Assembly: GCF_022846255.1 (NCBI RefSeq)
Contig: NZ_AP025682.1
DNA from: Escherichia coli
GTDB lineage: Bacteria > Pseudomonadota > Gammaproteobacteria > Enterobacterales > Enterobacteriaceae
Direction: 5' to 3' (one strand)
Length of the DNA: 64,000 nucleotides
The translations under genes and the position numbers were made by a program. A model generated the notes under the pieces. That model searched no databases, was not told the DNA's origin, and was given only the letters and a program-made list of their open reading frames with translations. How positions within the stretch are numbered: the first letter of the stretch is position 1; each line of letters begins with the position of its first letter. Positions 2,677 through 56,908 of the stretch are shown in pieces.

Positions 2677-5567
<2,891 letters not shown>

Positions 5568-26383: not shown

Positions 26384-26476
26384 GGTGAGGTGGCCGAGAG
26401 GCTGAAGGCGCTCCCCTGCTAAGGGAGTATGCGGTCAAAAGCTGCATCCGGGGTTCGAATCCCCGCCTCACCGCCA
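26384..26476 (+). tRNA. serV: tRNA-Ser (anticodon GCU), long variable arm
   Basis: 93 nt cloverleaf ggtgaggtggccgagag...ccgcctcaccgcca with anticodon loop cugCUAag and encoded CCA. Confidence 0.93.
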
Positions 26477-26479
26477 TTT

Positions 26480-26556
26480 GCATCCGTAGCTCAGCTGGAT
26501 AGAGTACTCGGCTACGAACCGAGCGGTCGGAGGTTCGAATCCTCCCGGATGCACCA
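26480..26556 (+). tRNA. argV: tRNA-Arg (anticodon ACG), copy 1
   Basis: 77 nt gcatccgtagctcagctggatagagtactcggctACGaaccgag...ggatgcacca; 3 nt after serV. Gene names for the four copies assigned by order only. Confidence 0.9.
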
Positions 26557-26620
26557 TCTCTTACTTGATACGACTTTAGTGGCGGTATCAAAAAATCTGC
26601 AGTAAAGTAAGTTTCCCGAT

Positions 26621-26697
26621 GCATCCGTAGCTCAGCTGGATAGAGTACTCGGCTACGAACCGAGCGGTCGGAGGTTCGAATCCTCCCGGATGCACCA
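26621..26697 (+). tRNA. argY: tRNA-Arg (anticodon ACG), copy 2
   Basis: Identical 77-nt sequence to copy 1. Confidence 0.9.
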
Positions 26698-26759
26698 TCT
26701 CTTACTTGATATGGCTTTAGTAGCGATATCAATATCAGCAGTAAAATAAATTTCCCGAT

Positions 26760-26836
26760 GCATCCGTAGCTCAGCTGGATAGAGTACTCGGCTACGAACC
26801 GAGCGGTCGGAGGTTCGAATCCTCCCGGATGCACCA
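26760..26836 (+). tRNA. argZ: tRNA-Arg (anticodon ACG), copy 3
   Basis: Identical 77-nt sequence to copy 1. Confidence 0.9.
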
Positions 26837-26899
26837 TCTCTTACTTGATATGGCTTTAGTAGCGATATCAATATCAGCAGTAAAATAAATTTTTCCGAT

Positions 26900-26976
26900 G
26901 CATCCGTAGCTCAGCTGGATAGAGTACTCGGCTACGAACCGAGCGGTCGGAGGTTCGAATCCTCCCGGATGCACCA
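26900..26976 (+). tRNA. argQ: tRNA-Arg (anticodon ACG), copy 4
   Basis: Identical 77-nt sequence to copy 1. Confidence 0.9.
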
Positions 26977-53384: not shown

Positions 53385-54653
53385 TTATTGATTAAATGCG
53401 GCGTGTAAGGCATCCACACTACGTGCCGCTCGCAGCGTGCGTCCGGGGTTACTCTGGCTTGCCAACAGCGTTTGTACCTTGCTGACAATATGCGCACCAA
53501 TAGGAATTGCTGATGTCGCTGCCGGGGAGGGCGCATTACAGGTGTGGATCGTGCGCGGGGTGGTGACAAACAGAAAATCGTCAATCAGCTTGCCGTCCGG
53601 CGATACTGCCTGCGCCCGCACACCGGGGGGCCTGGGCTGGAGATCGCTTAACGAAAGCCGGGGACAATACTTTTGCACCAGCCGCAGATAGCCGCTTTTG
53701 CACAGCGAGTTTTTCATCTCGCCCAGTCCTGAGCGTAGATGGTTTTGCAGCACCCGGCGAATCCCCGACGAGCCTAAAATCTCCAGCGTGTCACTAAATG
53801 AGAAGTCGCGCTTGCGATAGCCTTCGCGTTTGAAAGCCAGCACCGCGTTTGGCCCGACGGTCACGCTGCCGTCGATCATGCGGGTGAGATGCACGCCCAA
53901 AAACGGCATTGCCGGGTCGGGAATGGGGTAAATCAGGTGGTTAACAATCTGGTTATGCTCCGGCGCAAGGCGGAAATACTCGCCACGGAACGGGCAGATA
54001 ATAAAGCCCGGTTCGAGGCCGAGCATTTTCACCAGCCGGTCAGCCATCAGCCCGGAACAGCTAATCAGCGTCGATGCTTCATATTCACCGCCCTGACGGG
54101 TACGTATCACCACGCCGTTTTTATGCTCACTAAGGGCGCTGACTTCGGCGTTATAAATAATCTCGCCGCCTCTGGCCTGGAAGATTTTTGCCATCGCCGC
54201 CGTCACTTCGCGATAGCTGACAATGCCGCTGGACGGCACAAAAATGCCGCCAAGCCCGGTGATATTCGGTTCGCGCTCGCGCAGTTCCTCGGCGTTTAAC
54301 CACTCGCGCTCGATACCGTTCGCCGCCGTGCGTTCCCACAACGCGCGCATCCGTTCCATTTCGAGTTCAGAGGTGGCGACCAGCATCTTGCCGCAGTTGT
54401 CATAGCGAATGCCGTTTTGATCGCAAAAGGCTTTGGTGGCGCGGTTTCCCGCCAGGCAAAACTGCGCCTTCAGGCTGCCGGGCGTGTAATAGACCCCAGC
54501 ATGGATCACGCCGCTGTTGTGGCCCGTCTGGTGACAGGCCGGGCCGGACTCTTTTTCCAGCAACGCAATGCGGGCATCCGGATAAACATCAATCAGTTGC
54601 ATGGCGGTCGACATGCCGATGATGCCGCCGCCAATAATCACAAAATCATACAT
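53385..54653 (-). CDS. lhgO: L-2-hydroxyglutarate oxidase/dehydrogenase (FAD)
   Basis: Start at MYDFVIIGGGIIG (FAD-binding GxGxxG) inside the longer ORF (53385..54719). Confidence 0.93.
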   Translation of the reverse strand: MYDFVIIGGGIIGMSTAMQLIDVYPDARIALLEKESGPACHQTGHNSGVIHAGVYYTPGSLKAQFCLAGNRATKAFCDQNGIRYDNCGKMLVATSELEMERMRALWERTAANGIEREWLNAEELREREPNITGLGGIFVPSSGIVSYREVTAAMAKIFQARGGEIIYNAEVSALSEHKNGVVIRTRQGGEYEASTLISCSGLMADRLVKMLGLEPGFIICPFRGEYFRLAPEHNQIVNHLIYPIPDPAMPFLGVHLTRMIDGSVTVGPNAVLAFKREGYRKRDFSFSDTLEILGSSGIRRVLQNHLRSGLGEMKNSLCKSGYLRLVQKYCPRLSLSDLQPRPPGVRAQAVSPDGKLIDDFLFVTTPRTIHTCNAPSPAATSAIPIGAHIVSKVQTLLASQSNPGRTLRAARSVDALHAAFNQ

Positions 54654-54672
54654 CCGCTCAATTCCTTTGCGC

Positions 54673-55749
<1,077 letters not shown>

Positions 55750-56179
55750 TTACATATTGTTTTCTTATTGTGATCAAAAACAACAAATTAATAACAAATA
55801 ATGTGAGGGATAAGAATTGGGTTGAAAGGAAATGAATAATTAAAACAATATATTAAGTGTGCTTATACTCTTTTTCGAACTGGTGGCATTTGTTTAAATG
55901 CTATTTAAACTGCTTTTCCAGAGTTCAACTTACTGAGTTCCGTGTCGACTAATGTGAGTAAGATCAATCGCATCCAACCTATGTTACTTGATGGAATCGA
56001 TAACAATATTAATGAATATACAGATTCCGGGAAGGCTGGCTATGGGGGCAAATTATTCTCTTTCTGGCAACAGGTAAATAACAGTGACCATTTGTCGAGA
56101 AGCTGATACTAAGCTGAGGGATACTGTATATGTCTGGACTGTAATTGGATGAATTCTATTCAGGGCGGGTCAGGACCAA

Positions 56180-56205
56180 TAAAAAAGCCCGCATCAGCGG
56201 GCTTT
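56180..56205 (-). terminator. Rho-independent terminator downstream of ssrA
   Basis: Plus strand aaaaaagcccgcatcagcgggcttt, i.e. hairpin plus T-run on the minus strand; about 128 nt beyond the mature tmRNA 3' end. Confidence 0.7.
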
Positions 56206-56332
56206 AATGTCATAGGGAGTCGCGACTCCGTTGCGTATCCTTTTTTGTCTCCTCACCGTCTGGTCGGTGTCCTGCTGAGACTTATAACTTCCTGTTTTTG
56301 TTGGTGTAGTCCTTACACCGTCCAATCATGAT

Positions 56333-56695
56333 TGGTGGAGCTGGCGGGAGTTGAACCCGCGTCCGAAATTCCTACATCCTCGGTACTACATGCTTAGTCA
56401 GTCTTTACATTCGCTTGCCAGCTGCGGACGGACACGCCACTAACAAACTAGCCTGATTAAGTTTTAACGCTTCAACCCCAGGCAGGGCTTCCACGCGATC
56501 TCTTTTGGGTTTGACCTCTCTTGATCCCCGTCCTAAGAGCGGAGGCTAGGGAGAGAGGGCTCTAAGCAGGTTATTAAGCTGCTAAAGCGTAGTTTTCGTC
56601 GTTTGCGACTATTTTTTGCGGCTTTTTACGAGGCCAACCGCCCCTCGGCATGCACCTTGGGTTTCGCAAATCCCGTCGAATCCAGAATCAGCCCC
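56333..56695 (-). ncRNA. ssrA: tmRNA (transfer-messenger RNA, SsrA)
   Basis: Reverse complement begins GGGGCTGATTCTGGATTCGACGGGATTTGCGAAACCCAAGGTGCATGCCGAGGGGCGG and ends ...GGTTCAACTCCCGCCAGCTCCACCA; 363 nt; tag-coding region present. Confidence 0.97.
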
Positions 56696-56908
56696 AATGT
56701 GTAACGGTAAGTATACCAGATTTATGAGCAGCATGACTAGCCCAAAACGCGTTATCATCCTGGAATTAGCGCCTGCATAGTATGATTTTTTTCGATTAAG
56801 CAATGGGATGGCTACATCTGTGTCAGATTTGACAGTCGATAAGATGTTCATTCGCGCCACCGGATAGGGAGGCGCGGTGAGGATTTGATTAGTATCGCTT
56901 ATATAGGT

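Follow-up and report, generated by a model that had tools for sequence, protein, structure and literature searches.

In Escherichia coli K-12, tmRNA is cut from a longer precursor (pre-tmRNA), in which a 3' trailer extends from the CCA end to an intrinsic terminator. The 457-nt length of this precursor and its exonucleolytic trimming by RNase T and RNase PH reportedly go back to Li et al. 1998 and Komine et al. 1994. A precedent for a functional RNA from such a region is E. coli 3'ETS-leuZ, which derives from the 3' external transcribed spacer of a tRNA: it, too, separates the mature 3' end of a stable RNA from a terminator, is released by RNase E and has a U-tail suited to Hfq, but shows no sequence similarity to the trailer described here. 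Processing of K-12 pre-tmRNA by RNase E is stated in a passage of PMC11347164 that cites Lin-Chao 1999. On the side of mobile elements, the P2-like phages PhiKPN and PhiESP, which use tRNA-Met, carry the 3' end of the target gene together with sequence beyond it, and their integration restores the gene; the blocks of attP/attB identity are 50–110 nt long and reach beyond the gene (PMC3448106). The arm sites of lambda (P and P') and of P2 (consensus tgTGGaCa; PMC3448106) are short direct repeats that flank the core about one helical turn apart, and the integrases have an N-terminal arm-binding domain.

The DNA analyzed here (the window) is a 64,000-nt stretch of a B2-type E. coli, in which 801 bases around the site of interest are 100% identical to strain SCU-125 and 99.5% identical to Nissle 1917. 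The mature tmRNA (363 nt, tag ANDENYALAA) lies on the minus strand at 56333–56695, and ARAGORN and Rfam RF00023 (295.8 bits) agree on its CCA end at 56333. A putative sigma-70-like promoter of ssrA (TAGTCA, 18 nt, TG-TATACT) was assigned to 56710–56739 on the same strand by consensus match alone. The consensus scan returned a single minus-strand terminator-like site between 55000 and 57500, a G+C-rich hairpin followed by a U-run at 56205–56181 (9-bp stem including A-U pairs, loop UGAU, U6), and no second one between the CCA end and 56205. Its stem-loop, AAAGCCCGC-TGAT-GCGGGCTTT, occupies 56205–56184, the U-run continues to 56181, and the stem is compensated between alleles (for example, GCCCGC/GCGGGC versus GCCCAC/GUGGGC). 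The 127 nt at 56206–56332, which run on the ssrA strand from the mature 3' end to this first terminator, are hereafter called the type A trailer, a candidate 3' external transcribed spacer of ssrA. The initial annotation had drawn the same trailer and the same sole terminator, with the hairpin at 56180–56205, and its coordinates hold to within 1–2 bases. A core pattern of the trailer with 18 specified bases matches the window once, against 0.00 matches expected.

The tmRNA 3' end occurs only once in the window, so the ssrA site is unoccupied. The terminator is separated from the next genes, glaH (csiD) and lhgO, by about 525 bp of non-coding sequence. These two genes thus adjoin ssrA (54673–56180 and 53385–54719), and the CP4-57 and ypjA region that intervenes in K-12 is absent. 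Elsewhere in the window (26384–26976), a tRNA cluster of one tRNA-Ser (GCT) and four tRNA-Arg (ACG) genes represents the usual serV-argV array.

The K-12 trailer resembles this one in position, from CCA to an intrinsic terminator, in the involvement of a mobile element that crosses over in the 3' end of ssrA, and in its plan of an A/U-rich start, a hairpin and a terminator; its maturation by RNase E is again taken from the cited passage of PMC11347164. However, its sequence is unrelated: it is derived from CP4-57, measures about 80 nt and contains one hairpin, whereas the trailer of the window has 127 nt, four hairpins and internal GGAC motifs. Other endings are also in use after ssrA. A single hairpin plus terminator (about 80 nt) comes from P4-like islands, and 8 nt plus terminator from P2-like elements. 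These trailers all follow one plan, in which a short A/U-rich start precedes at least one hairpin and then a terminator. This exchangeability of several endings implies that the type A trailer is not essential for tmRNA function. In P4-like islands at ssrA (L225–L230 and L238), TTGGTACACG-type repeats are found between the island terminator and int. They lie 3' of the terminator and not within the trailer, unlike the GGAC motifs of the window, so that the likely arm sites of this family are outside the transcribed part.

Four hairpins, H0 to H3, were recognized in the trailer on the minus strand. For the analysis of their conservation, 50 distinct trailer copies were aligned, and the structure was set by hand, since RNAalifold alone missed H1, and then counted. 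With this structure, 95.2% of the cells pair, compared with 40–47% when the partner columns are slid, and the observed covariation score was reached by none of 500 shuffles; many of the aligned sequences are closely related, which inflates the covariation counts. H1 (56303–56319) is a 6-bp hairpin with an AGGAC loop, in which pair 14-30 is AU in 25 copies and GC in 16, pair 18-26 is AU in 20, CG in 19 and UA in 7, and pair 19-25 is UA in 24, CG in 3 and AU in 2. H2 (56247–56281) is a two-part hairpin with an outer stem GUCUC/GAGAC, an inner stem CACCG/CGGUG and the loop ACCAGA. Its outer pair 55-83 is UA in 26 copies, UG in 16 and CG in 6, and the invariance of its inner stem is partly due to ascertainment, since the copies were gathered with an exact pattern inside H2. 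Two variants retrieved with a different pattern (L206 and L214) have CACUG/CAGUA as the inner and GUCAC/GUGAC as the outer stem. The compensatory base changes thus support the predicted H1 and H2 hairpins. H3 (56216–56229; GGAGU-CGCG-ACUCC, with GGAGCCGCGGCUCC in most other copies) is nearly invariant, the window having U-A where 48 other copies carry C-G, and covariation support for it is consequently weak. On the plus strand, a weak terminator-like site at 56221–56235 is made up of the H3 complement and a T-rich run after it.

H0 (56322–56335), which belongs to the predicted fold of the precursor, includes the CCA end in the hairpin CCAAU-CAUG-AUUGG and is a 14-bp perfect palindrome, CCAATCATGATTGG, at the DNA level. 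Of 125 type A copies, 124 have an intact stem, and the four central bases in the loop differ between species (CATG, AATG, CGTG, TTTA); H0 is absent from phage phiNP and from the divergent type B trailers described below. Judged by its sequence, this palindrome could be an RNA hairpin or a dimer-binding DNA site. Without its terminator, the trailer folds modestly better than shuffled sequences (z = -1.7 to -2.3). Conservation averages 1.75 bits in unpaired columns and 1.69 bits in paired columns, and falls to 1.06 bits in the linker before the terminator. An attempt to assign the strand from G-U versus A-C mismatches gave too weak a signal (47 versus 29). The proposal of the initial annotation that the trailer may carry a precursor-processing element finds an echo in these hairpins, whose compensatory changes would be expected of such an element.

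BLAST detected the trailer in three phages (LLS, phiNP and Ayreon) and in small circular E. coli 'plasmids', and Klebsiella plasmids gave fragmentary matches; the core pattern is present in at least 120 IMG/VR contigs. The LLS genome has xis and int followed by gene 31, a tmRNA 3' end of 39 nt, the trailer and finally the terminator, and phiNP has the same layout. In the virion-derived genomes of LLS, phiNP and LMessi, the trailer lies directly beside the core and away from int, which is the position of a P' arm. A divergent relative, type B, is present 3' of ssrA in Klebsiella prophages, in phages LMessi, phiES15, PhiR12 and CP-1639, and in 36 sequence variants among the IMG/VR contigs. A covariance model built from type A copies (R1) scores 183.6 bits on the window trailer. 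It recognizes type B at E from 5e-8 to 1e-10, and its full-length matches to type B and to a Dickeya copy have E from 5e-8 to 3e-4. This carriage of trailer and terminator by temperate phages beside the attP core goes beyond what the initial annotation had proposed.

The papers on phiNP and LLS report 25 and 29 bp of identity with ssrA, respectively (PMC6456863, PMC12315714). These values are short because the comparison was made with K-12, whose matching flank is displaced: the block common to phage attP and host site is about 200 bp, including the structured spacer and the terminator, and prophages of this kind are flanked by direct repeats of 160–200 bp. PhiKPN and PhiESP are similar in that the phage brings the end of the target gene and the sequence beyond it. 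They differ from the present case, in which the block of about 200 nt contains a structured spacer and a terminator, occurs in many genera and exists in at least two divergent types.

Lambda sib, as it is generally described, also lies just beyond attP and 3' of int, and in the circular phage, int transcripts would run into the trailer. This analogy was nevertheless rejected, as the trailer contains no long RNase III-type duplex. Furthermore, a near-identical trailer follows attR in many hosts, so that integration would not uncouple it from int, unlike sib.

Some copies are found outside this arrangement. Ayreon and an identical prophage lie beside the 5' end of prfC (L007 1497–1648 and L009 2997–3148) with a truncated trailer that has neither a tmRNA end nor a terminator, and a promoter predicted by the depositor overlaps the trailer start. 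A trailer fragment in the Klebsiella pneumoniae IncF plasmid p90CM2-172k (L181 2494–2585), with counterparts in five similar plasmids, joins a few bases of the tmRNA end on one side to the middle of a DUF4236-like gene on the other. This gene sits 3' of the trailer in Enterobacter hormaechei (L032), and part of the fragment is annotated as 'TonB family protein'. The trailer of a 43-kb R-M element (L183) is a mosaic relative to another copy (L008).

Of 5426 complete E. coli genomes, 4205 contain the trailer with its terminator; the copies form three classes, with about 100%, 92% and 89% identity, and a junction-spanning query found ssrA joined directly to the type A trailer in 2638 of the E. 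coli genomes. In K-12, it is found 22 kb from ssrA, at the distal end of prophage CP4-57, directly after an imperfect copy of the core (attR) that is devoid of T357, which agrees with the published description (PMC10107115). In O157 and other strains, it likewise stands at attR behind other islands. The displaced trailer of K-12 (L001 2501–2662) has lost the third of the GGAC repeats described below (GGAC to AAAC). It lies 10 bases from the 3' end of ypjA, a convergent gene for which its terminator also serves as the end. The plus-strand H3 site and the main terminator, which works in both directions, might serve as a stop for transcription from the far side, for example that of K-12 ypjA. The description of the trailer in the initial annotation as native flank at the position of att sites is thus correct for the unoccupied site and for the place after the attR core in K-12 and O157; in an evolutionary sense, 'native' is doubtful because the E. 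coli alleles differ by about 10%.

The comparison across enteric bacteria that the initial annotation had proposed as a check showed conservation in Enterobacterales. A scan with an exact pattern, in one genome per species, detected the trailer in 20 other species of this order, always directly 3' of a tmRNA end, which was a full-length gene in 12 species and an att-core fragment in 8. The carriers include Escherichia albertii, E. whittamii, Citrobacter, Klebsiella, Enterobacter, Lelliottia, Leclercia, Pluralibacter, Trabulsiella, Pseudenterobacter, Mixta, Tatumella and Erwinia. Two of these copies are decayed: that of E. albertii has an internal deletion and no terminator, and that of Trabulsiella has likewise lost its terminator. 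In Salmonella and some Citrobacter (L170, L171 and L240–L245), the giant bapA starts about 600 bp after smpB, and ssrA is not adjacent to smpB there because the bapA operon lies in between. A contig labelled Chryseobacterium sp. 18061 (L049 6320–6845) carries a tmRNA of the enterobacterial type (ANDENYALAA) followed by a type A trailer, which is likely due to contamination or mislabelling.

The hits in searches against the curated RNA families (Rfam 15, E up to 10) were weak, fell well short of the gathering scores and were almost all due to the terminator hairpin. A full-text search with fragments of the trailer sequence and a survey of the literature on pre-tmRNA and its trailer found no published description. 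The FMN-responsive tmRNA precursor of Bacillus subtilis was considered as a relative and discarded, since it is unrelated and concerns the 5' side. The trailer is a real, conserved and apparently undescribed element, although the kinds to which it belongs, the 3' transcribed spacer and the arm of an att site, are known.

At the DNA level, the trailer contains three GGAC repeats on the minus strand, counted from the CCA end: repeat 1 at +10 (56320–56323) and repeat 2 at +21, in the H1 loop (56309–56312), are each GGAC in 48 of the 50 copies, and repeat 3 at +61, on the 5' side of the inner H2 stem (56269–56272), is GGAC in 43 of the 50 and is kept in type B. A related G(G/A)GAC occurs at +82 to +86. 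Repeats 1 and 2 are spaced by 11 bp in type A and type B alike, and both are retained in chromosomal copies without a prophage. Direct repeats about one helical turn apart recur on the opposite, P arm of the phages, a correspondence that the initial annotation did not contain. In LMessi, whose int gene abuts attP, P-arm GGAC motifs at 3365, 3376 and 3387 show exact 11-bp phasing in direct orientation, and homologous P arms in other prophages of the LMessi family keep two of the three. The pattern is weaker in LLS and phiNP, whose P arms have one or two GGAC motifs with unclear phasing. The LMessi P arm and the type B trailer also have the repeat ATATGCAC...AAATGCAC in common. Sharing of k-mers between P and P' arms exceeded that of shuffled sequences in some elements and not in others, partly because the downstream trailer of a prophage belongs to the host. 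The P2 arm motif, when searched as a bare 7–8-mer, yielded noise.

The integrases of LLS, phiNP and LMessi are 67–85% identical, and all three have an Arm-DNA-bind_2 domain. Repeats 1 and 2 are lost in Ayreon, which has a P4-like integrase and lies at prfC, and in the 43-kb R-M element, whose integrase has no arm domain. Given their phasing and their recurrence in the P arm, the GGAC repeats are probably arm-type integrase sites. They resemble the arm sites of lambda and P2 in being short direct repeats around a core, about one helical turn apart, in elements whose integrase has an N-terminal arm-binding domain; they differ in that the GGAC motif is deduced from sequence and in that the P' arm here also lies within the precursor of a highly transcribed stable RNA of the host. 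That arm sites of one integrase account for every copy was rejected as the sole cause, since Ayreon and the 43-kb R-M element also carry the trailer.

On balance, we consider it somewhat probable that the trailer combines two roles, as the 3' transcribed spacer of pre-tmRNA at an unoccupied site and as the P' arm of the attP of one integrase family, in a portable cassette shared with phages. RNA polymerase starting at the ssrA promoter would run to 56205–56181, and as no terminator precedes this site, the precursor would carry about 150 extra nt. These would fold into H0, which pairs the CCA end, then H1 to H3 and the terminator. RNase E would cut near the CCA end, exonucleases would trim to CCA and the trailer would be released, as extrapolated from K-12, whose own trailer is the different, CP4-57-derived one. 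The lambdoid phages of one integrase family (LLS, phiNP and LMessi, with the Arm-DNA-bind_2 N-domain) would cross over inside the tmRNA 3' region and for that reason carry the tmRNA end, the trailer and the terminator as their P' arm, and their integration would rebuild a complete ssrA unit. The chromosomal trailer is probably either the footprint of a phage arm or the template that phages have copied. The similarity between host and phage copies is likely maintained by repeated integration, followed by loss of the prophage through recombination between the flanking trailers. The host trailer has thus probably been exchanged with phage copies: allele divergence of about 10%, mosaic trailers and flanking repeats of 160–200 bp fit repeated exchange better than simple vertical descent.

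The same 127 nt seem to be under two constraints. Protein sites in direct repeat cannot account for compensatory changes in stems, nor can RNA folding account for the phasing of GGAC in the P arm, an arm that the ssrA transcript never includes. The trailer would be transcribed at a high level from the ssrA promoter and, in the phage, as the 3' end of int transcripts, and this double transcription would require that it folds harmlessly, allows cleavage near CCA and terminates.

A possible but rather doubtful alternative is that the trailer is a functional RNA native to the host, either a scaffold for the processing or stability of pre-tmRNA or a stable sRNA by-product of about 155 nt that is set free by RNase E, binds CsrA or Hfq and would correspond to the small 3'-derived RNA suggested in the initial annotation, and that phages copy it and their lysogens thereby keep a working ssrA. 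The compensatory changes in the hairpins are compatible with this, as are the unpaired columns, which are as conserved as the paired ones while the linker is loose, and the intact trailers in chromosomes without an adjacent prophage, including the window. Moreover, A(N)GGA motifs in type A number 8 against 3.0 expected (p ~0.008), one of them in the H1 pentaloop and one as CAGGAAG, and an (ARN)5 run (AAC AAA AAC AGG AAG) together with the U-tailed terminator would suit Hfq. However, GGA is not enriched in type B (3 versus 2.0), where GGAC and GAC are kept instead, and GAC is enriched in both types; the Rfam CsrB/Rsm models match the terminator alone (RsmY at positions 99–120, 14.5 bits against a gathering score of 57). 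The entirely different trailers of K-12 and about half of E. coli, down to the 8 nt of the P2-like kind, make type A dispensable for tmRNA function, and the phased GGAC motifs common to the P arms are better explained at the DNA level.

Less probable still is that the trailer is an inert spacer, the decaying fossil of a phage arm or island end in which the terminator is the sole working part and conservation reflects recent spread and gene conversion. The decayed copies in E. albertii and Trabulsiella, the truncated relics on Klebsiella IncF plasmids and beside prfC, the displaced K-12 copy without GGAC 3 and the many other kinds of trailer that work equally well after ssrA are all in line with such decay. 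On the other hand, pairing in H1 and H2 is maintained by compensatory double changes in several sequence types, the loop of H0 drifts but its stem does not, and conservation occurs in blocks, the linker being variable; pairing would be lost under neutral decay. We regard as an outside chance the further proposal that trailer and terminator, once cleaved from pre-tmRNA, persist as an abundant structured RNA of about 155 nt that binds CsrA, Hfq or SmpB (the last through GAC/GGAC) and is swapped by ssrA phages. Such an RNA would have escaped notice because a prophage displaced it from the ssrA promoter in K-12 and model strains, and its replacement by phages would be lysogenic conversion at the RNA level. 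A small protein is scarcely credible: a 43-codon TTG ORF (56194–56325, minus strand) and a 60-codon ORF (56149–56331, plus strand) exist mechanically, but neither has a start codon with a properly spaced ribosome-binding site, single-base indels at columns 18, 34, 87 and 93 of several homologous copies break any frame, and substitutions track base pairs rather than codons.

The combined reading as transcribed spacer and phage arm bears on both the maturation of tmRNA and the way in which phages rebuild their target gene. The textbook pre-tmRNA is that of K-12, with a trailer of prophage DNA, while about half of E. coli genomes and many enteric bacteria use the 127-nt trailer. The identity of about 200 bp between attP and host site provides a RecA substrate through which prophages could be lost and alleles could pass between phage and host, and makes attR resemble a full attP. 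The trailer can also help to locate the true outer boundary of the island arrays at ssrA. In addition, it offers a compact test case of a single DNA stretch in which RNA hairpins and protein-binding repeats may both impose constraints.
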